Shown here: positions 14,759 to 64,000 of the stretch, in pieces
How positions within the stretch are numbered: position 1 is the first letter of the stretch
Layout of the letters: each line of letters starts with the position of its first letter
Assembly: GCA_964561535.1 (NCBI GenBank)
Contig: CAZLPZ010000001.1
Coordinates: forward strand, 40,946-104,945
Direction of reading: 5' to 3'
Origin: an uncultured Pseudobdellovibrionaceae bacterium
GTDB taxonomy: Bacteria > Pseudomonadota > Alphaproteobacteria > Micavibrionales > Micavibrionaceae
Length of the DNA stretch: 64,000 nucleotides
The notes under the pieces: model-generated
Seen by the model: the letters and a program-made list of their open reading frames with translations, nothing else
What the model was told of the DNA's origin: nothing
Database searches by the model: none
Translations under genes and position numbers: made by a program

Positions 14759-17700
14759 TTATTCCCCAGCAACCGTTTTCGGTGGCGTTACTTTTGCCGC
14801 CGGATCTGCAAGAGGTCCATCCGTAACGGCAGCCGCAGGCAGAGAAACCGGGCCCCCCCCTGTTGATTTCGGTAATAAAGGAGACGTTTTTCGGAATGAA
14901 TCCAAAAATTTACCAAAAAGATCCACTTCTTCAACCAACTTATTCAGCGTGTCTCGATCCGCCAATGTCGGCACCTGACGTTCACGCGTCACAATATCAA
15001 ACTCATCTGCCCGCTTGGTTTGAGTCATCGCCGTCATATACAAGGAACGAATACGGGCAAGTTCAATCCGATCGCCACCCAAATTTACGGCAACCGCCAA
15101 ATTTTGAACATTATCAGCTTGAATATCTGTTGGAGGCTTTGTCGGCAAAATAGGATCAAGCGCAAGCAATTTTGAAAGTGCAGCAGCAACATCACCCCAC
15201 CGGGCCGTCTGCCATGCAATATCTGCTCCAGCCCGTAAAACATTCGGATCATCTTGAGGAAGTTCAGAAAGAACCGATAATGCCTGATCAACACGATCTG
15301 ATTGTGATAAAGCCCGTGCACGAAGTAACCCTAAATCTAATAATTTACGTTTCTGAAGATCATCTTTAGGCAACACTTCAATCATGGCGTCAGTACGATT
15401 TAAAACACCAAGTGCTAAATCAGCGCGCTTATTCATCAAATGAACGGCAGCCAATCGTAAAGCTCCATCAACCCGTTCGTTGTCGACCAATTTATGATCC
15501 ACAAGATCTTGCAAAACACGAACTGCCCGATCAAGTAAATCAACTTCAAGTAACCGATCCACCAAATTCATCATCATTTGATTGGCGTCAACCCCCACTG
15601 GCGCGAGTTCTCCAAATTTTTCAAACACGGTAATTGCGTCAATCGGGTCAATTTTTTTTATGTTTTCCGGCGTAAAAACTGATTTAAATTGTTCAATCAT
15701 CAATGCTGTTACACGTCGTCCGCTTTCCGATTCAGGTGCAAGTGACACCGTATCCCGCAACATCGAAAGCCCGCGTATATAATCCCCACCCGCCAAATAT
15801 GTTTCGCCCAAACGAGTGCCGATTGCCATTTCAAAATCATCACCTCGCCAACTGAACCGCAGAGTCTCTAATCGATCTACAGCTTGATCTGGTGTTATCT
15901 TTCCACTTTCAAAATTCATAATGGCCAAGGCAAGACGTGCACGTGCGCGATATTTATCATCCTTACTTTTTGATAATTTCTCCCAAATACTTGCTGCGAC
16001 ATCTTTTTTACCTTGTTGTCGCGCAACCTCTCCCTTTAAATAATCCGCATATGCCAAAACAGACAAACGATGTAAAGGATTATCCAATTTCTGGGTTTTT
16101 TTATCCGACATCGCATTATCGGCCGTTGATAAAATCTTTTGCGCCTCTATCGATTTTCCGGCACGTAAAACACTTTCTCCAATTGTCAAAATCATATCGG
16201 GGCCAAAAGACCATGGGTAATGCGCCGCCAATTTTGTATCAACCTCTGGTACCGTTGCCGCGCGCGACCAGTCTTGTAATTTTCCAATCATAACCGCACG
16301 CCACAGCGGTATATCCACATACGCATCAAGACCAGGATTATTTAAATCGTCAATGGCCAAATCATACTGGCCATTAATGGCATATGCCGCACCACGCACG
16401 CCCAAAAATTCAGGGTTATCGATTAATGGCGGGGACGATTCAAGGGCAAGACGAAAATATCCAACAGCTTCGGCCCCCCGACCACTTGCCAAAAACATTT
16501 TCCCAATATTCATATACCCGCTCGCGCGGTCATCTTCTTTTTTCTCAGATAAATCTGAAATCAATGCGGTTTCATTCGATAAAAGTGACGATACCCCCCC
16601 CATTGCCCAACGATCAAACCGATATAAAATATTTTTCTGAGCTCCTGTAGCATCGATAATTTTAGAATCGTCTGAATTTTCGGCATCCGAACTCACAATC
16701 GCTTTCACTTCATGATCTGATTCATGTCGCGTCGGTGGGGCCGTAAGCGTGGGATCCCCCTTATGATCATCTTCAGAGACATATGTTTCAGCCTGAAGCG
16801 ATGTTGTAACGGACACCCCACTGGGACGTGATATCAAAACGCCATCATGAATAATTTTCACATCTAAATCATCCACCTTGGAGACAACAGCAATGCCAAT
16901 CGGAGAATGTGCTGTATAAAATTCCGTAAAATCATGCATGGGTCCCGCATATTGGTCTGATTTTGAAACAGTCCCCACCACGATTGTCTCACCCGTATCG
17001 GGATCATTCAATTTAATAAGTTTTGTAACATCGGATGGCCACAAAACACCGCGATCATTATCACCATCCAACCGCCGCAAATCCGTGGCGGGTAATAATT
17101 TTGAATCCACCGGAGCAATCACAACTCGCCAGAATAAATCACCGCCCTCGCCCCGAATAAAAAGAACAGGCCCTGGCAATTTCCATTTAAAAATAGTCGC
17201 GTCTGACGTTCCAATCCGCGTCACAGGACCAAATCTTTCAGACCCCACCCCCGATAATTTTGGAGCACCTTCAAAATTGGGCGTATCTACAACAACCCAC
17301 AATGTACGATTTTTGATAAATGACGCCATTCCAAATTTATTCAGCGATGAAATCGCCAAAAGCGGCGGCTGTATTTTATCAACAACAATCGGGCGATCAT
17401 CTAGATCTGGCATCATCGCTGGTAATTTTGACGTGGCCGAAACAACTTGTATTTCTGGTTTTATTTCTGGTGTAAGACCGGATTTTTTATCTGTTGGCTG
17501 AACAGAAAGTGTCGCGACTCCGGCTTTATTTACCTCTTGCTCAGGTTTCAAAACATCTTGTTTTTTTAATTCGACTTGAGGTTCTTTTTTAATTTTATAA
17601 TTTTCTTTATCCTCAATTTGATCAACTTTCTTTTCAGATGGTAAATCTGTTTGATTTTTTTGAGCTCTTAATTTTTCATCATGCCCAAAATCAAGAATAA

Positions 17701-55946: not shown

Positions 55947-56357
55947 ATGATAAACGTATATTCATCTCCCCTCGATTTTGGAATACGACAATCTCCCCGT
56001 GATTATTTCCAAATTGATTTCAACGCAGCAGCAATCCCATATGTCTGTTTGAAACTGGGGTGCAGTGTTACAACTTTGCCAGAAGCCATTCGTTCCGAAG
56101 TATCATCCTACGTGAGCGAAAATGGCCCGACAATAGAATATAATCACGTTATTGTTATCGCCGAAAGTGATAATAATATTGAAAAATGGGGAATGGGTTT
56201 GAAAATTTCTTTTCATGAAACCGCATGGTGTTACATCGAGAACGCGAATCTCCAAGGATTTAATATGACTGGTTGTTTAGAAGAAATGATCAATGACTTG
56301 ACAGAAGGTCTGCCAAGCAATGCCTGCGCCTATGCAACGGTGGAACACGTTTGGTAA
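55947..56357 (+). CDS. hypothetical protein, 136 aa
   Basis: ORF with AAGGAAA upstream. No similarity to ribosomal protein S16, which normally occupies this position. Confidence 0.45.
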   Translation: MINVYSSPLDFGIRQSPRDYFQIDFNAAAIPYVCLKLGCSVTTLPEAIRSEVSSYVSENGPTIEYNHVIVIAESDNNIEKWGMGLKISFHETAWCYIENANLQGFNMTGCLEEMINDLTEGLPSNACAYATVEHVW

Positions 56358-56435: not shown

Positions 56436-57047
56436 ATGATGCCTTCTGATCGCCTTCTGATCGCCGATATCGGCCCCGCCCATGGCATAAAGGGGGCGGT
56501 CAAATTACGTCTTTTTTTGGACAATCCCGACCTGTTGTCCACCCTAAACCCCCTGTTTATTGGTGAAAATGGGGATAAAACCACAAAACTGACCCTGATG
56601 CAGGACGCCGGGAAATCGGGCTGGATTGGCCGGATTGACGGCGTTGCCGACCGGACAACGGCCGAAAAATGGCGCGGTATAAAACTCTATGCGACCCGCG
56701 CGGCCCTGCCAAATTTGGATCATGACAATGATACAGACGATGCCTCAGGTGATTTAGGGTCCTATTACATCACTGATCTGATCGACCTGACGGCGGTGGA
56801 TGCCGATACAAACGCCGCGATCGGGACCGTATTATCCGTTGATAATTTCGGGGCGTCTGATTTGTTGGATATCAAACCCACCGGTGACGGCGCGACATTT
56901 TACGTGCCGTTCACCGATGATTACGTCCGTGCAGTTGATTTAGCAGCAGGGACCATCGCTTTGGTCAACGCCGATCTTTTTTCTGGCCCCGCGGTCCAGG
57001 ATGATGGCCATGATGATCACAATCAGGACACAACCGAAAAACAATGA
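56436..57047 (+). CDS. rimM: 16S rRNA processing protein RimM
   Basis: LLIADIGPAHGIKGAVKLRLF and the PRC-barrel part YYITDLIDL. Acidic/His-rich tail. Confidence 0.85.
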   Translation: MMPSDRLLIADIGPAHGIKGAVKLRLFLDNPDLLSTLNPLFIGENGDKTTKLTLMQDAGKSGWIGRIDGVADRTTAEKWRGIKLYATRAALPNLDHDNDTDDASGDLGSYYITDLIDLTAVDADTNAAIGTVLSVDNFGASDLLDIKPTGDGATFYVPFTDDYVRAVDLAAGTIALVNADLFSGPAVQDDGHDDHNQDTTEKQ

Positions 57048-57739
57048 CATCCCTTTGGCATGCGAACATCATTACCCTATTCCCGGATATGTTCCCAGGG
57101 CCCCTCGCCCATGCTTTATCGGGAAAAGCGCACCAAAATAAAATATGGGATTTTACAGCCGTAAACCCCCGCGATTTTGCGACCGACCCCCATAAAACGG
57201 TCGATGATACACCCTTTGGCGGCGGAGCAGGCATGGTCTTAAAACCTGATATTCTTGACCGCGCCATCCGGTCGATTCCCACCCCTGGCAAATTGATCTA
57301 TCTATCGGCCCGGGGGCGGAAATTGACCCAATCCATCATCACCAACATCGCCACGCTGCCCGCCATTACATTACTGTGCGGACGCTACGAAGGTGTGGAC
57401 CAGCGCGTTTTGGACGCCCACGGCTTTGACGAGATTTGTATCGGCGATTACGTCCTGTCCGGTGGCGAGGTCGCCGCTTTAACATTAATGGATGCCTGCA
57501 TCCGGTTGCTGCCCGGTGTGATGGGGAATATCGATACAGCTGGGGATGAAAGTTTCACCGACCCCCAGTTACTCGAATATCCACATTACACCCGCCCAGC
57601 GATCTGGACCGATTCAAACGGGGTCGAACATACCGTGCCTCCAATCTTAACATCGGGGGATCACGGAAAAGTCCGCAACTGGCGCGACACCGAATCCCGC
57701 GCCTGGACCACCAAAATGCGGCCGGATCTGATAAAATAA
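57044..57739 (+). CDS. trmD: tRNA (guanine37-N1)-methyltransferase
   Basis: ITLFPDMFPG, DDTPFGGGAGMVLKP, LLCGRYEGVDQRV and GDYVLSGGE. 4-nt overlap with rimM. Confidence 0.95.
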   Translation: MTSLWHANIITLFPDMFPGPLAHALSGKAHQNKIWDFTAVNPRDFATDPHKTVDDTPFGGGAGMVLKPDILDRAIRSIPTPGKLIYLSARGRKLTQSIITNIATLPAITLLCGRYEGVDQRVLDAHGFDEICIGDYVLSGGEVAALTLMDACIRLLPGVMGNIDTAGDESFTDPQLLEYPHYTRPAIWTDSNGVEHTVPPILTSGDHGKVRNWRDTESRAWTTKMRPDLIK

Positions 57740-57918: not shown

Positions 57919-60054
57919 CTATGCCTGTGGGGCAGGCAAGCTGTCATTAAGCATGTAAGCCGCCATAAGTGGCAAAACGTCCATGTTTTTGTACCCGGGT
58001 TTCAAAGAAACGGCGTCGACACCCATTGAAGCAAATTGAGCGAGAGATGCTGGATCCATTACGTGGTCGCCGCAGGCATCGATCTTTAAGATGGGGTTTG
58101 CAGTGCGTGCACGTGTCATTACATCTTTTAAGGAGGCCGCAACTCTAGGCTCGAGGGTAATAAAGGGGTCTAATCCTCCCAAATCCTTGGTCAATTGACG
58201 GCGCTTAGCCCAATCAGAACGGCCACATCCGAAAAATTCCGATGTATAGTCGTTTGAACCAATGCTAACAAAGTCGCATACCTTAACGATAGGTTCGATA
58301 TTTTGACCCGCTTCAAGTGTTTCGACCATACATCCAAACCGATACTGACCGGTTGATAGACCAAATTCTCCCGATAGTTTCTTAATTATATGCTTGGCAA
58401 ACAATACATCATCCCCAGTACGGACCAATGGGATCATGATTTCAATGGGTTCACATTCTAATGGGGTAAGACCTTCATCAACAGCTTCTTTAAATGCCTG
58501 GAATAACGCTCTTACTTGGCGACGATACATGGATGGCAGTTTACGTGCCAATTGAATGCCACGTGTATTGACAGTCCCAAAACGTGCTTCAATTTCCTGT
58601 TGTTCTGATGTAGAAAAGACATCTTCGGGTACAACATCCAATAGGCGAACCCGGTTACGAACGTGCAAACTGGTTTCGTTAAAGAGCCGCTTAAATATGG
58701 CCCTTTGTGTCGCCTCAAACTTCCTTCGTCCAGTGGTATCACACTTTAGCACCGCTTGACGAAATGCTGCCGTAGCCCTCTGGTCCTCTGCAAGAAGATA
58801 TTCTGTTCGAATAAGGCCAAAGTCGGTATCGATGAAGTGCCCAAACCCATTCACACTGCCAATTGATTTTTTAAGTGTTGGAAGCCCAATCCCATTTTCT
58901 CTTAGTTTTTCTTGCATCACGTGATAAAGTTCACTCACCCATTGATAACTATTCCTATCTGCTGTCGATGGCTTAATTTGAATGTCTTGGGGCAATAATG
59001 AGTTGATGTCCGTATCAATTGTAACGACATCTCCGGATTTTATAATTGAACCATTACCGAACCGAGCCTGGTGAACATTATTTTCGATTTCTTCTATATC
59101 GTAACCGCTCGAACATGCGTAGAGACCGGTAATATTATGGGTTCCGAAAAGAGAGGCCATGTGCGCAGGGTCGCTTTCCTTCAATAATATAATCCCTGCA
59201 ATCTTGCCCAGTATCTGGGGAACCTGTGCAGGATCATAATCTTTGACAATCAGCACAGGTTTATGGCCCTGTTTGAAATGAGATTCAACTTCATCGACTG
59301 TAAAGACAGCGGGCCCCTTGGTCGCCTCACCAGAGAACCGCGCAAATCGAATGGCTTTTTCAAAATCAAAATCACCCGGCGTATAAACGGTTGGTGACAA
59401 ACCTGATGTCCAGAGCCGATCAGCGTGCTCTCTCATTCTTCGAATGGCCTCTTCGAAGGATATGCTCCCATCGGCATGGAAACCCCATATATCACCTGGG
59501 GTAATATTGTCCTGTTGCAAAATAAGGGGGACGAAGTCATTTGGGTTTAAGAGAAACGTTGTCTCAAATGTTTCGTTTAAGTAAGTACGAAGACCGTTAG
59601 TCGGACATCTTGTCAGGTCCCGGTAAATAAACTGTTCACTCGTTAGTACCTTAACAAGCCGTATTTCTGAACGATCCACCGCGTAGACTTTGATATCGGC
59701 CAGATGAGTTTGCCCCTCTTTGACTCTTCGTTGGATCAGGTCCTCGATTCTCTGTTTTGTACGTAAGACAAAGGTATCGTCGGCCGATAGAATCAGGATG
59801 GCTTTAGGAAGTTGCTCTGCTTGAAACCTATCGAACATCTCCAGGGTGCCAGCAAAGGCATTTTCCCTACCACCATGGGCTCCAACACAGTCCAGAACAA
59901 CGGCATGGGGCACTACAAAATCATCATCCAGATCAATCTCATCGAAAAAACGATATCCCTTGAATTCTACCCCCGGTATGGACGTGCCTAGACGCATAAG
60001 CGTGCGTGTCGATACCTCATTTACATTATCATCGACGACAAGAATTCTATGCAC
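57919..60054 (-). CDS. CheY-like receiver fused to a PPDK-type phosphohistidine swivel domain and PEP/pyruvate-binding TIM barrel (no ATP-grasp domain)
   Basis: N-terminus: RILVVDDN...AVVLDC...ILILSADD. Middle: PVLIVKDYDP..AGIILLKESDPAHMASL...SGDVVTIDTD. C-terminus: FGLIRTEY, VRLLDVVPEDVF, EIMIPLV, FGCMVET, FVSIGSNDYT, ACGDHVMDP. These map in order onto PPDK motifs. Confidence 0.8.
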   Translation of the reverse strand: MHRILVVDDNVNEVSTRTLMRLGTSIPGVEFKGYRFFDEIDLDDDFVVPHAVVLDCVGAHGGRENAFAGTLEMFDRFQAEQLPKAILILSADDTFVLRTKQRIEDLIQRRVKEGQTHLADIKVYAVDRSEIRLVKVLTSEQFIYRDLTRCPTNGLRTYLNETFETTFLLNPNDFVPLILQQDNITPGDIWGFHADGSISFEEAIRRMREHADRLWTSGLSPTVYTPGDFDFEKAIRFARFSGEATKGPAVFTVDEVESHFKQGHKPVLIVKDYDPAQVPQILGKIAGIILLKESDPAHMASLFGTHNITGLYACSSGYDIEEIENNVHQARFGNGSIIKSGDVVTIDTDINSLLPQDIQIKPSTADRNSYQWVSELYHVMQEKLRENGIGLPTLKKSIGSVNGFGHFIDTDFGLIRTEYLLAEDQRATAAFRQAVLKCDTTGRRKFEATQRAIFKRLFNETSLHVRNRVRLLDVVPEDVFSTSEQQEIEARFGTVNTRGIQLARKLPSMYRRQVRALFQAFKEAVDEGLTPLECEPIEIMIPLVRTGDDVLFAKHIIKKLSGEFGLSTGQYRFGCMVETLEAGQNIEPIVKVCDFVSIGSNDYTSEFFGCGRSDWAKRRQLTKDLGGLDPFITLEPRVAASLKDVMTRARTANPILKIDACGDHVMDPASLAQFASMGVDAVSLKPGYKNMDVLPLMAAYMLNDSLPAPQA

Positions 60055-60214: not shown

Positions 60215-60229
60215 GTTCTTTATATGTTC
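60215..60229. promoter_or_regulatory. alphaproteobacterial LexA (SOS) box GTTC-N7-GTTC
   Basis: GTTCtttatatGTTC is an exact match to the direct-repeat consensus. It lies 60 nt upstream of the Y-family polymerase ORF in a divergent intergenic region. Confidence 0.6.
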
Positions 60230-60288: not shown

Positions 60289-61566
60289 ATGTCCTTCTTT
60301 ACCCCGCCGCCCCATCATCCGCGCTGGATGTTCGTCGATATGAACAGTTACTTTGCCAGTGTCGAACAACAGGACCGCCCGGCCTTGCGCGGGAAACCTG
60401 TGGCCGTCGTGCCGGTCCAATCAGATAGCACGTGCGCGATTGCGGCATCATATGAGGCCAAGGCTTACGGCATTAAAACCGGCACGATCATTGGGGACGC
60501 GCGGCGCAAATGCCCCGGGCTTATTTGCGTTCTCGCCCGCCATCACAAATATGTTGAATACCATCATAAAATTCTGGCCGAGATTCACCGCCATGTGCCC
60601 ATTACCAAGGTGTGTTCGGTCGATGAACTCTCGTCCCGCCTCTCGCCCCTCAACCAAACCGAAGACCGAGCGGTTGAATTGGCCCACGCGATTAAGGCGG
60701 GTCTAAAAACCAACGTGGGCGACCATATTCGGTGTTCGATCGGCATCGCGCCCAACAGTTTTTTGGCAAAAGTCGCGACCGACATGATGAAACCCGATGG
60801 GTTGGTCGTGTTGCGGGGGACGGAACTTACCCATGAACTCTTCCCCCTGAAACTGACCGACTTGCCGGGAATCAATACCCGGATGGAACAACGCCTGTGG
60901 CGCGCGCGGATCCGCACGGTCGAGGATTTGTGGCGGTCGAGCCCCAAACAGGCGCGGGCGGCCTGGGGCAGTGTGGAAGGAGAACGGTTTTGGTACAATC
61001 TGCACGGCCATGAAATCCCCGACCGGATCACGCATAAATCGATGGTGGGGCATTCGCGCATTCTGGACCCGGATCTGCGGCCCGTGGCCGCCGCGTGGAA
61101 TGTTGCGCATCGGTTGACGGTCAAGGCGGCGTCACGCCTGCGCCGCGATGATTATTACGCCACGCGGTTTGCACTGTCGGTGCGAACATCCGGTAATGAC
61201 CGATGGGCACGTGAAATCCGCCTGCCCCCGGCCCAGGATGATTTTGGGTTTATCCAAGGCGTGCAGGCCCTGTGGTCCGCGATGCGGGCCGAACTCAACC
61301 CCACACACATCAAAAAGATTTCGGTCAGTTTATATGGCCTGTGCCAACGGGGTGAGATCACACCGGATTTGTTTGAACAGGCATCCCCGGCGTATCAAAG
61401 ATTGGTCACGCGTCACGAAAAATTATCGGGGGTGATCGACCAGATTAATATCAAAAACGGACGTGAAGCCGTCCGGTTGGGTCAGACCCCCGCGACCCTT
61501 GCCGGGTACCTCGGCACCAAGATCGCATTCAACCGCGTGCCCGAGATGGGGGAGTTTGTACATTAG
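60289..61566 (+). CDS. Y-family DNA polymerase (DinB/UmuC-like)
   Basis: MFVDMNSYFASVEQ (catalytic Asp), KPVAVVP, SVDELS (catalytic DE), and a little-finger region. The start may be Met at 60328. Confidence 0.85.
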   Translation: MSFFTPPPHHPRWMFVDMNSYFASVEQQDRPALRGKPVAVVPVQSDSTCAIAASYEAKAYGIKTGTIIGDARRKCPGLICVLARHHKYVEYHHKILAEIHRHVPITKVCSVDELSSRLSPLNQTEDRAVELAHAIKAGLKTNVGDHIRCSIGIAPNSFLAKVATDMMKPDGLVVLRGTELTHELFPLKLTDLPGINTRMEQRLWRARIRTVEDLWRSSPKQARAAWGSVEGERFWYNLHGHEIPDRITHKSMVGHSRILDPDLRPVAAAWNVAHRLTVKAASRLRRDDYYATRFALSVRTSGNDRWAREIRLPPAQDDFGFIQGVQALWSAMRAELNPTHIKKISVSLYGLCQRGEITPDLFEQASPAYQRLVTRHEKLSGVIDQINIKNGREAVRLGQTPATLAGYLGTKIAFNRVPEMGEFVH

Positions 61567-61701: not shown

Positions 61702-64000
61702 TTATATCGCCATTGCAACTGATATTCCCCGCTTACTTATATTGGCTGGCTTTCGGATGATTGGATATGCACTTGGCATACCATCATCTTCTGATGTTGT
61801 CCTAAATACATCCTGTAGCCAAGTGGCTTTATCTCTTATGCTTGGGGCAACCGTAAATCTTTTGACTGAGGATGTAGATTCTATCAGGTTACTCGGTCTA
61901 TAGACAACAATATCTCGAGATTGCATTTTCGCCTGCAGGAACAGAGAACCTTGCCATTCTTCCCTTTCTGCAGGCGACATCTCTTCTGTAATTCCATTTT
62001 GGAGATCTAGAGACCAATCAGCCAGAATGTTCATAGATAATAATATTTCCCGAATATCATCTTGATTAAGAACCTTAAAAAAATCCCCTAATGCTAAGAT
62101 CCCTTTTTTTACCTCAACCAAATATTGTGTGTCTTGGCCGGTTTGGTGAAGCTCTTCAATTTTATCACCAGTTACTTTTCCAAAAGCATCAACAATATTA
62201 TCTCCATTTGTTATAGATTTCAGAACAGCATAAATGACCTTACCAAGCATTTTCTGCTCTTCAATTGATGGATCGTCCAAGGCCATAGCACCCGTATCAT
62301 ATATCCCTGCCAAGTTCGTTTCTGGATCAATTGATAATTGTGCTCCATGTCGGTCATGGTCAAATTTTCGGCCAGAGAGAGTATTAGTCAATTCGAATAA
62401 AACATATCCTTTGGCAAAGCTTTTCTTATAACTGATCTGTTTTGGTGTTTTTTCAGGCAAATCATTAAACATTGGCCCCTTTGCTCGGTCCATGATGATC
62501 CAATTCTTACCCTTGGCGCGCCAATCCATCACTTTAAGAGGAAACGAATGGCTTCCATTACTCAAGGTCACGCTATTATAAAGCTTTTTGGCGTGTTCAT
62601 ATTGTTGCTGCCCAGCCTCATGGTCTGTTTCGATTTCCGACATACGAGCAGCCTGAATAATCATTTCGGCAACAGAACGAGTCAGTTCTCGATAACTTAA
62701 ATCTGATGTCCCTTCTTTTGTTTCAAGATCCGCGACAGTACAATGAATAATCCGAAACCCTTTGGCGGCTTTTTCCCTGGCCTCGGGCCGTAAAATCCTT
62801 AAGACACCATCCTCACCAAGCGCGATACTAGTATAGTAAGAAGCAGACCCCATCACCTCACCCAGATATTGCTCTTTCCACAATTCTTCGGGAATGTTTT
62901 CTGCTCTAATCCAATCGTAAACCACCCATCTGGGCGGGATATTGGCGGAGCTTTTTAAATGCTGGAGTTCTTTTTTAATTTTTTCTGGTGTTTTAGGATG
63001 TGAAGAAATTGCTTGACCCAATTTAATTTCTGCCGGCCCCATATTTTCGAGGAAAAACCTTAATGCCTTACCAACATTACCAATATCTAACCCAATATTT
63101 CGGTTTGCAACCATCATGGCAGATAATATAAGCACCCGTTCGTAATCACTTCTTGCCTTAATGTAAGAGTGCATAATTTCACGAGCATATTGTGCCTCGA
63201 TTGATTGGTCGTCTGGACGAATGATGTTGCTCATAACAACATCAAAGACACGTTCCCATGAATGTTCTTTAGGATTTTGTGTGACTTCCTTCTTGGTATT
63301 CACCGCACTTTTAAGCATACGTGCGATGATAAAGGCACGTGCTTCTAAAGGAGCGGACCAAAAATTTTCATAAAAAACTTTGCAATCTGTGGGTTGGGTA
63401 AATTTTAAAACGTTATCTAAACGAGACTCGTGGTCTTTGTATTTTTTAGTCATTGTCCGCTTAATATACGTACTAACTTTCTTACAATCCCTTTTTTCAC
63501 CTTTTGAATTTAGAAATTGAATAAAGTTATTTGCGACATCCGCGTCCCTGTCCATTTCTTCAGTCAAGTAGTCGACGCCAACGCCATAAAGATAACTTTG
63601 AATCATATCATCCGACCCAAGTGAAATTTGACAGCTCTCCTTTATCATCTGAGAGGTTTGTTCTTGAGAAACAATTCGATCCGAAAGGCGTCGTAACAGT
63701 AAATATTTATCGGCCGACGAGATCATATTGGAAAGTAACCCGCCTCTGGCCCCATGCTGAGCCCCGATATCCCAAGGCTTCTTGGTGTCATCTTCTAAAG
63801 ACTTTAAATAGACAGATAGCCGACGCTGGTATTTTTCTGACCCATCATCTTTCCCGAGTCTTGCCGCGGCGTCACTGACATAGATATTGAAGACGCGGTC
63901 TCTGGTTTCTGGGTACGCAGCGCGTAAGCTTTTGTCGAGAAGAATATAGAGGCATTCATTTTTCTTTCGACCAGACGGAAGTTGTTCAACCTTATTAAGA
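61702..64000 (-). CDS. divergent UbiB/ABC1-family atypical kinase-like protein with a long N-terminal extension (5' end probably outside window)
   Basis: KxGQ motif GPAEIKLGQAISSHP, Ala/Ser-rich loop GSASYYT, LRILRPEA, WIIMDRAKG, catalytic-loop-like FDHDRHGAQLSI and YDTG (DFG-like). The frame stays open from the ATG at 63726 up to base 63999. Confidence 0.7.
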   Translation of the reverse strand, partial: LNKVEQLPSGRKKNECLYILLDKSLRAAYPETRDRVFNIYVSDAAARLGKDDGSEKYQRRLSVYLKSLEDDTKKPWDIGAQHGARGGLLSNMISSADKYLLLRRLSDRIVSQEQTSQMIKESCQISLGSDDMIQSYLYGVGVDYLTEEMDRDADVANNFIQFLNSKGEKRDCKKVSTYIKRTMTKKYKDHESRLDNVLKFTQPTDCKVFYENFWSAPLEARAFIIARMLKSAVNTKKEVTQNPKEHSWERVFDVVMSNIIRPDDQSIEAQYAREIMHSYIKARSDYERVLILSAMMVANRNIGLDIGNVGKALRFFLENMGPAEIKLGQAISSHPKTPEKIKKELQHLKSSANIPPRWVVYDWIRAENIPEELWKEQYLGEVMGSASYYTSIALGEDGVLRILRPEAREKAAKGFRIIHCTVADLETKEGTSDLSYRELTRSVAEMIIQAARMSEIETDHEAGQQQYEHAKKLYNSVTLSNGSHSFPLKVMDWRAKGKNWIIMDRAKGPMFNDLPEKTPKQISYKKSFAKGYVLFELTNTLSGRKFDHDRHGAQLSIDPETNLAGIYDTGAMALDDPSIEEQKMLGKVIYAVLKSITNGDNIVDAFGKVTGDKIEELHQTGQDTQYLVEVKKGILALGDFFKVLNQDDIREILLSMNILADWSLDLQNGITEEMSPAEREEWQGSLFLQAKMQSRDIVVYRPSNLIESTSSVKRFTVAPSIRDKATWLQDVFRTTSEDDGMPSAYPIIRKPANISKRGISVAMAI

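Follow-up and report, generated by a model that had tools for sequence, protein, structure and literature searches.

A PPDK-like protein family with an atypical receiver in the place of the ATP-grasp domain, and a candidate relay from PEP to a receiver aspartate

What might a protein do that retains the phosphohistidine and phosphoenolpyruvate (PEP) domains of pyruvate phosphate dikinase (PPDK) and has a receiver domain where PPDK has its ATP-grasp domain? The question is raised by a gene in a 64,000-nucleotide stretch of DNA (the window) from an uncultured Pseudobdellovibrionaceae bacterium, contig CAZLPZ010000001.1. The coding sequence occupies window positions 57919..60054 (-) as a single intact open reading frame (ORF) of 711 aa, with a GTG start at 60054 that agrees with the starts of its homologues and a TAG stop at 57919-57921. 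Its G+C content is 45.5%, against 47.4% for the window, and an identical protein (P0001) is found in NCBI on a 105,783-bp contig. The original prediction held that a CheY-like receiver is fused here to the mobile His domain and PEP barrel of a PPDK that has lost its nucleotide-binding domain, and that PEP could thereby feed a His-to-Asp relay within one polypeptide. The domain assignment is confirmed: a receiver, a helical module, a swivel His domain and a PEP barrel follow one another, and there is no ATP-grasp domain. On whether phosphoryl groups would pass from PEP through His298 to Asp55 in cis, a reading drawn from the architecture and from residue conservation, we regard the chances as evenly divided.

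The C-terminal part leaves little doubt about its kinship. In a phmmer search against all PDB sequences the top eleven matches were PPDKs, the best (5jvn, E=1.5e-26) aligning query residues 196-687 with PPDK residues 359-861, and enzyme I of the PEP-dependent phosphotransferase system (PTS) reached just E~4e-3. The best NCBIfam model is likewise that of PPDK (TIGR01828; residues 196-686 on model positions 354-850), albeit with 112.3 bits against a cut-off of 843.45, and the PTS enzyme I model (TIGR01417) gave 36.8 bits against 341.7. The PEP/pyruvate-binding TIM barrel lies at residues 391-711 (57922..58884, -), where Pfam PEP-utilizers_C (PF02896) covers residues 413-686 with E=1.3e-27, and it bears R416, R470, E578, N601-D602 and C661 (58072-58074). 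In the phmmer alignment with PPDK, GLIRTEY falls on GLCRTEH, VRLLD on IRLLD, EIMIPLV on EIMVPLV, GCMVET on GTMIEI, IGSNDYT on FGTNDLT and ACGDHVMDP on ICGEHGGEP; these we take to be the motifs that carry Arg561, Arg617, Glu745, Asn768/Asp769 and Cys831 in Clostridium symbiosum PPDK. A long helix at residues 363-390 (58885..58968, -), recognised from the model (helix 367-386) and from Foldseek as the equivalent of PPDK linker 2, connects the barrel to the swivel phosphohistidine domain at residues 231-362 (58969..59364, -). There H298 (59161-59163) falls on the catalytic His of GGMTSH, but the surrounding context, including the regulatory Thr, is replaced in the family by [AST][GSA]H. Scanned alone, the swivel domain scores 21.1 bits against the 23.1-bit cut-off of PF00391 (E=2.3e-4), a model that matches 10 of 40 relatives. 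Given this sub-threshold score, the phrase used in the original prediction, a His retained in a degenerate context, is an accurate description of the domain. The PEP-utiliser motifs listed there are all found in the translation and in the stated order, in agreement with PF02896 and the PPDK alignment, and the Arg, Glu, Asn-Asp and Cys positions align with those of PPDK.

The absence of the ATP-grasp domain (PPDK_N, PF01326), also predicted, holds equally well: Pfam finds it neither in the query nor in any of 40 relatives, although it is present in the true PPDKs of the same homologue list. Without this domain no chemistry of ATP, AMP or pyrophosphate should be possible, and only the PEP/pyruvate half-reaction would be left, as in PTS enzyme I. 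It also follows that PEP or a donor protein would be the only possible source of phosphoryl groups for the His.

What stands in place of the missing domain is less easily seen. With the single sequence, a Pfam scan of residues 1-147 gave no match at E<=10, BLAST of the N-terminus against CheY found no similarity, and a search of the PDB returned no genuine match, the hits to SAKe being repeat artefacts. A profile built from 37 family N-termini (A2) gave a very different picture, with about 60 solved receiver domains making up nearly all of its top matches in the PDB, led by RcpA (E=7.9e-6) and Rcp1 (1.8e-5) and followed by YycF, CheY, NtrC, PhoP and others. In these alignments the family DD (D9) falls on the acidic pair and D55 on the phospho-acceptor Asp in 'PDLILLD'; hhalign of the family N-terminus with Spo0F (E=5.9e-5) gave the same register. 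In the AlphaFold model, residues 1-139 (59638..60054, -) have the β1-α1-β2-α2-β3-α3-β4-α4-β5-α5 topology, that is, the (βα)5 fold of receivers, with β1 at 2-7, α1 at 14-24, β2 at 29-34, β3 at 51-55, α3 at 62-76, β4 at 85-90, α4 at 93-112, β5 at 122-127 and α5 at 128-139. The acidic pair D8-D9 (60028-60033) follows β1, the predicted phospho-acceptor D55 (59890-59892) sits at the end of β3, and S90 (59785-59787), at the Ser/Thr position, ends β4. The claim of a CheY-like receiver is thus borne out at the level of profile and fold, though it is undetectable from the single sequence.

Between the receiver and the swivel domain lies a helical module at residues 140-230 (59365..59637, -), consisting of an LRxFLN...LPLT motif and then helices like those of PPDK linker 1. 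The motif, (L/F)RxFLN...LPLT at residues ~150-180, is the best-conserved one specific to the family; its R156 (59587-59589, -) and N160 (59575-59577, -) are kept in 36 and 34 of 40 sequences, respectively. A family hidden Markov model (HMM) aligned with true PPDKs takes up the alignment at query residue ~185, which corresponds to PPDK ~355-360, and residues ~185-230 are homologous to the linker-1 helices. The roughly 130 aa that had been left as unassigned sequence therefore shrink considerably, residues ~185-230 being accounted for by PPDK linker 1 and residues ~150-180 by the conserved motif. In one relative (P0016) the receiver and the LRxFLN motif have been duplicated together, which makes the motif part of the receiver module. 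An equivalence of R156 to the nucleotide-site Arg of PPDK was considered and dropped: LRxFLN fell on the preceding 'DMQDxEFT' segment, at the end of the PPDK nucleotide-binding domain, in only two of nine PPDKs, and in weak alignments.

Fold comparison agrees with sequence comparison. AlphaFold was unusable with the single sequence (predicted local distance difference test, pLDDT, 34.6), and the model built on a 40-sequence alignment is confident (pLDDT 91.4; predicted template-modelling score, pTM, 0.85). Foldseek placed PPDK first (E=1.5e-33, ~563 aligned columns), then enzyme I (2hwg, E=1.1e-16) and then isolated PEP-binding domains. The arrangement of the domains is closest to PPDK in a particular state: the model superposes on 2r82, described as a 'second conformational state' or intermediate swivel state, with TMq 0.61 and a root-mean-square deviation (rmsd) of 4.4, and on 2r82, 1vbg and some chains of 5jvl/5jvj with rmsd 4.4-5.0, compared with rmsd 12 for 1dik/1kbl. 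A superposition of the 2r82 kind presumably has the His domain docked on the PEP barrel with His298 facing the PEP site, so that the modelled swivel state fits a competent PEP-His step.

Is this a single odd protein, or a family? An exhaustive phmmer search against 1.84 billion cluster representatives (50% identity) found 65 proteins at E<=1e-30, mostly of 700-815 aa and with scores far above those of true PPDKs; a full-length relative (P0005) is 42% identical to the query. Among 157 proteins retrieved, the A2 HMM called a receiver-like domain in 82, with 1-5 receiver modules per protein and 89 domains in total. The suggested survey for the same fusion thus turned up at least 82 cluster representatives that share it. 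In these family proteins H298 is kept in 81 of 82 (and in 40/40 of the alignment), R416, E578 and D602 in 82/82, R470 and C661 in 81/82 and N601 in 78/82, and the Asp at the position of D55 is present in 89 of 89 receiver domains. Such near-invariance of catalytic residues reflects selection, given that columns of the 40-sequence alignment average only about 22% identity. The second, metal-binding acidic residue (the D9 position) is Asp in 82 of 85 domains. Position 90 is Ser in 65 of the 89 domains and a gap in eight; it is His in a subgroup of 16, for example P0049 and P0052.

The members also share their architecture. Pfam finds PF02896 in all 40 aligned members and, as noted, PF01326 in none, and the family HMM gives members 700-840 bits against <300 bits for PPDK, PpsA and enzyme I genes. 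Several relatives carry tandem receiver-like modules before one His-plus-PEP unit, with five in P0059 (1444 aa) and two in P0016 (989 aa) and P0071 (910 aa), and the D55-position Asp is kept in all five copies of the first and in both copies of each of the others. In P0012 (1015 aa) the family-type receiver is preceded by an additional, canonical one, which is the only Pfam receiver match among the 40 (E=3.6e-10). No other fused candidate acceptor domain was found in any relative examined, and near relatives that appear to lack a receiver showed no alternative N-terminal domain, being truncated gene calls or proteins with weakly detected receivers, an outcome that does not tell a relay from a regulatory receiver. 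Among the weaker matches there are also unrelated PPDK fusions (P0095, 1878 aa; P0123 and P0142, about 1,530-1,550 aa), in which an enolase C-terminal barrel precedes a full PPDK or PPDK-type His-plus-PEP units are followed by an acyltransferase domain.

Every named member is a 'hypothetical protein' from metagenome-assembled genomes (MAGs) of uncultured Alphaproteobacteria or Proteobacteria, a taxonomic picture drawn from few MAG titles; one of these (GCA_016125135.1) carries two paralogues. Word-indexed homologue searches, with the single sequence or with the 40-sequence profile, returned only the query itself and ordinary PPDKs, and a scan of genome contigs with the single query protein gave no match. 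Enzyme I and other genes were also among the matches of a genome scan for the degenerate DNA pattern 'CDFxSxGxNDLT'; of the pattern matches listed, an HMM filter left L071, L087 and the partial L016 as family genes, adding two Alphaproteobacteria MAGs and one Proteobacteria MAG. Neither the family nor its N-terminal domain is represented by a model in Pfam or NCBIfam, and full-text literature searches returned nothing on the architecture or on PEP-driven phosphorylation of receivers. The family is uncharacterised, and we found no characterised protein or curated family that combines a receiver, a swivel His and a PEP barrel, just as had been supposed when the protein was first described.

How does the family compare with the systems it resembles? 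PPDK (TIGR01828; 5jvn, 1vbg, 1dik, 2r82) is its closest relative by sequence as well as by fold, sharing the linker-1 helices, the swivel His domain, the following linker helix and the PEP/pyruvate TIM barrel, in which the two Arg, the Glu, the Asn-Asp and the Cys motifs agree. It differs from PPDK in having a receiver and an LRxFLN helix instead of an ATP-grasp domain, in the altered context of its swivel His, and in a score that falls far short of the PPDK family cut-off. With PTS enzyme I and its nitrogen-related counterpart EI-Ntr (TIGR01417; 2hwg, 2wqd) it shares a PEP barrel and a swivel His without a nucleotide domain, and as in enzyme I the conserved residues predict that the protein phosphorylates itself from PEP and then passes the phosphoryl group to a partner; like EI-Ntr it has an N-terminal signalling domain, which is a GAF domain in EI-Ntr and a receiver here. 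Unlike enzyme I, it is closer to PPDK in sequence, it lacks the HPr-binding helical subdomain (neither PEP-utilisers_N, PF05524, nor any other acceptor-docking domain was found in the query and 40 relatives), and its candidate acceptor is an Asp on the fused receiver rather than a His on HPr or NPr. By domain content and cut-offs the protein is therefore neither a PPDK nor an enzyme I, and it would be expected to work most like the latter. The best explanation of its origin is probably that the family derives from PPDK, most of the ATP-grasp domain having been replaced by one or more atypical receivers, each followed by an LRxFLN helix.

Receivers have been found joined to parts of PPDK before. 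A census of response regulators lists a 'REC-PPDK' combination (PMC5847659), which corresponds to Response_reg~PPDK_N and in which 18 of 18 receivers lack the Asp, the hosts being Bacteroidetes, Acidobacteria and Spirochaetes (PMC4395418 supplementary tables). Those fusions, too, combine a receiver with a portion of a PPDK-type enzyme, and they are as uncharacterised as the present family. The resemblance ends there, for Response_reg~PPDK_N proteins, whose hosts also include Heimdallarchaeota, consist of a Pfam-recognisable receiver and the ATP-grasp domain (PF01326), whereas our family has the opposite half of PPDK (His and PEP barrel), an invariant receiver Asp, and a distribution in MAGs of Alphaproteobacteria and Proteobacteria.

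We suggest that the protein may be a relay working in cis. PEP and His298 would react reversibly at the C-terminal barrel to give pyruvate and phosphorylated His298. Swinging on the PPDK-type linkers that it retains, the swivel domain would next reach the domain at the former place of nucleotide binding, the fused receiver, and give the phosphoryl group to its invariant Asp55. The level of receiver phosphorylation could in this way track the PEP:pyruvate ratio, with neither a histidine kinase nor ATP, and the phosphorylated receiver might act like a single-domain response regulator or a phosphorelay intermediate, either on partners or by passing the phosphoryl group on. Several observations are in keeping with this proposal. 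In PPDK the swivel His normally exchanges phosphoryl groups with the nucleotide-binding domain, and in our protein the receiver occupies the exact place of that domain, with the linker-1 helices that tether the swivel domain retained; receivers, for their part, catalyse their own phosphorylation from phospho-His donors. The residues that such a relay would need (the His, the PEP site and the receiver Asp) are conserved family-wide. We rank the relay in cis first because the receiver is always fused, always N-terminal to the swivel linkers, and possesses both a phosphorylatable and a metal-binding Asp. A more specific version of the idea, in which the protein is a His-Asp phosphorelay independent of histidine kinases and of ATP that writes the PEP:pyruvate ratio as phospho-Asp into a two-component or phosphorelay network, with the LRxFLN helix possibly supplying the positive charge of the missing receiver Lys, is put forward tentatively, and we would place it somewhat short of an even chance.

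In phosphorelays and PTS fusions, as in the proposed relay, a phosphoryl group moves between His and Asp (or His and His) on carrier domains that are fused or dedicated to the task. In the EI-HPr-EIIA fusions, which are multi-domain phosphoryl-transfer proteins of the PTS, the known transfer is from His to His (or Cys) rather than from His to a receiver Asp, and known relays start from an ATP-dependent histidine kinase and not from PEP.

A number of features of the receiver weigh against this proposal. The first acidic position is D in 58 domains, Q in 15, N in 7 and E in 2, so that 22 of 85 domains have Q or N there (the query has the D8-D9 pair). There is no conserved receiver Lys: K or R is found at the end of β5 in only 12/40 (position 128) to 13/89, the query having R128 after β5, and E130 is conserved across the family in place of the Lys. 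Nor does β5 bear a conserved aromatic switch residue, and the Pfam receiver model (PF00072) matches the family-type domain in none of 40 members. Formally, the family receiver is a pseudo-receiver by the definition of Bourret and colleagues, who also note that a receiver altered at DD, T or K may still be phosphorylated; in the present family the phospho-chemistry might proceed slowly or differently. In addition, the conserved receiver Asp would also be expected if a separate histidine kinase phosphorylated it, and in P0012 the canonical receiver that precedes the family-type one might take its input from a kinase. Comparison with intermediary receivers cuts both ways. Spo0F and CckA-Rec do not use the allosteric 4-5-5 face (PMC9981736), and the absence of a conserved aromatic switch would fit with the family not using it either. 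They do keep the Lys-Pro motif, whose cis peptide is called a hallmark of the receiver fold (PMC9981736), and whose loss from the query family is therefore notable.

These features also bear on the alternatives. As the main rival reading, the protein might be an enzyme-I-like phosphotransferase under kinase control, in which the receiver, fed by an unlinked histidine kinase or a small phosphodonor, gates the PEP module, and phospho-His may be passed to an external acceptor, either a protein of the HPr/NPr kind or a small molecule, by analogy with the GAF domain of EI-Ntr. Regulatory domains on PEP-utilising phosphotransferases are indeed known, since in EI-Ntr (PtsP) an N-terminal GAF sensor domain controls enzyme I, and the NCBIfam PtsP model weakly matches the barrel. 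The invariant receiver Asp is equally expected here, the added receiver of P0012 would find a ready role, and the L009 context has a response regulator and hybrid kinases near the family gene. Yet we consider this reading unlikely on the whole. No acceptor-docking domain accompanies the PEP module in the query or its 40 relatives, no HPr/NPr-like carrier ORF was found in the 64-kb window, and no kinase, Hpt or HPr-type partner gene is conserved across the contexts compared. The loss of the receiver Lys and aromatic switch would be unexpected in an allosteric receiver fed by a kinase, and alternative sensor domains have not taken the receiver's place in near relatives.

The flow of phosphoryl groups could also run the other way, the receiver collecting them from kinases, Hpt proteins or acetyl phosphate and draining them through His298 to pyruvate to make PEP; or the phospho-Asp might lose its phosphate fast by autodephosphorylation, which would make the protein a regulated PEP phosphatase. 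The PEP/His step is reversible in PPDK and in enzyme I, and all residues for it are conserved; arrays of as many as five receivers in tandem, each with its Asp, are reminiscent of a sink or collector, and an atypical site without Lys and with Q or N at the first acidic position could tune rates of hydrolysis or transfer. Against this, transfer from phospho-Asp to PEP is estimated from standard group-transfer potentials to be somewhat unfavourable, and it is hard to see why many lineages would conserve a futile PEP hydrolase, or one genome carry two paralogues. Although sequence data do not distinguish the direction of flow, we think a sink or reverse flow improbable. Least tenable of all is a non-catalytic remnant, be it a 5'-truncated PPDK/PpsA pseudogene, a mis-called gene or a pseudo-enzyme, as might be suspected from the swivel-domain Pfam score below its cut-off and from the 112 against 843 bits of the PPDK model. 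With the ORF intact and its start consistent with homologues, at least 82 diverged relatives of the same architecture and near-invariant catalytic residues, a confident structure model, and a clean separation of members from true PPDKs by the family HMM, a non-functional remnant is close to excluded on the sequence evidence.

Gene neighbourhoods differ between lineages, and the suggested search for conserved neighbours came up empty in nine genomic contexts, except for a dinB gene in two. In the window, the family gene is convergent with trmD (57044-57739) and divergent from a Y-family polymerase gene of the IMS/DinB type by Pfam and NCBIfam (60289-61566, +), and the nearby genes are ordinary housekeeping ones (topA, dprA, RNase R, gltX, rimM and trmD). 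No second copy of the gene was found in the 64-kb window; there, a PADLOC scan gave no defence-system match, Rfam gave no match, and the results of a promoter and terminator scan were at chance level. A DinB-type polymerase gene adjoins the family gene in two lineages whose proteins share only ~28-31% identity, and other contexts lack it. Its orientation is not the same, being divergent in the window and co-directional in L007 (10361-11626) and L008 (4614-5879), where it lies downstream on the same strand as the family gene.

A direct repeat, GTTCTTTATATGTTC (GTTC-N7-GTTC), lies at window positions 60215-60229, 60 nt upstream of the DinB-type polymerase gene, and is one of three motifs of this type in the 64-kb window. 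Similar boxes are found at 10311-10325 in L007 and 4564-4578 in L008, 36 nt upstream of the dinB homologue that adjoins P0006. We take the repeat to be of the alphaproteobacterial LexA/SOS-box type. Regulation of the receiver-PPDK-like gene by this box was considered and rejected: in both contexts it stands directly upstream of dinB, to which it is therefore assigned, and we read it as the probable SOS operator of dinB itself. A further contig (L001, which carries P0007) has a Peptidase_S24 (LexA-like) gene at 16489-17031 with a GAAC-N7-GAAC box at 17089-17103, just upstream of its start, which is consistent with LexA autoregulation; on the same contig a stretch of about 6 kb upstream of P0007 (1832-8001) has no called gene.

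Two other ORFs of the window may be mentioned. A 674-aa ORF at 61702-63726 (-) lies where G+C drops to about 40%, markedly lower than the 47% of the window, and belongs to no Pfam family. Its residues 201-503 weakly match a UbiB/ABC1-kinase-like model (TIGR01982, E=8.4e-10), and the gene may have been acquired horizontally or may encode an atypical kinase. Flanked by gltX and rimM, a 136-aa ORF at 55947-56357 (+) matches nothing in Pfam, NCBIfam or PADLOC.

In summary, the locus encodes a PEP-utilising swivelling-domain enzyme of a new variety, fused to an atypical receiver, and its family would provide a clear case of domain replacement among such enzymes. Bacteria have two main phosphorelay systems, two-component signalling and the PEP-dependent phosphotransferase system, and the links between them are normally only indirect. 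If the proposed relay is true, a receiver Asp at the place of the PPDK nucleotide site would form a direct physical bridge between the two, the status of central carbon metabolism (PEP:pyruvate) would set receiver phosphorylation without a sensor kinase or ATP, and the family would provide a natural example of a receiver working without the canonical Lys. Naming the family would also correct the annotation of 'hypothetical proteins' in many uncultured Proteobacteria.

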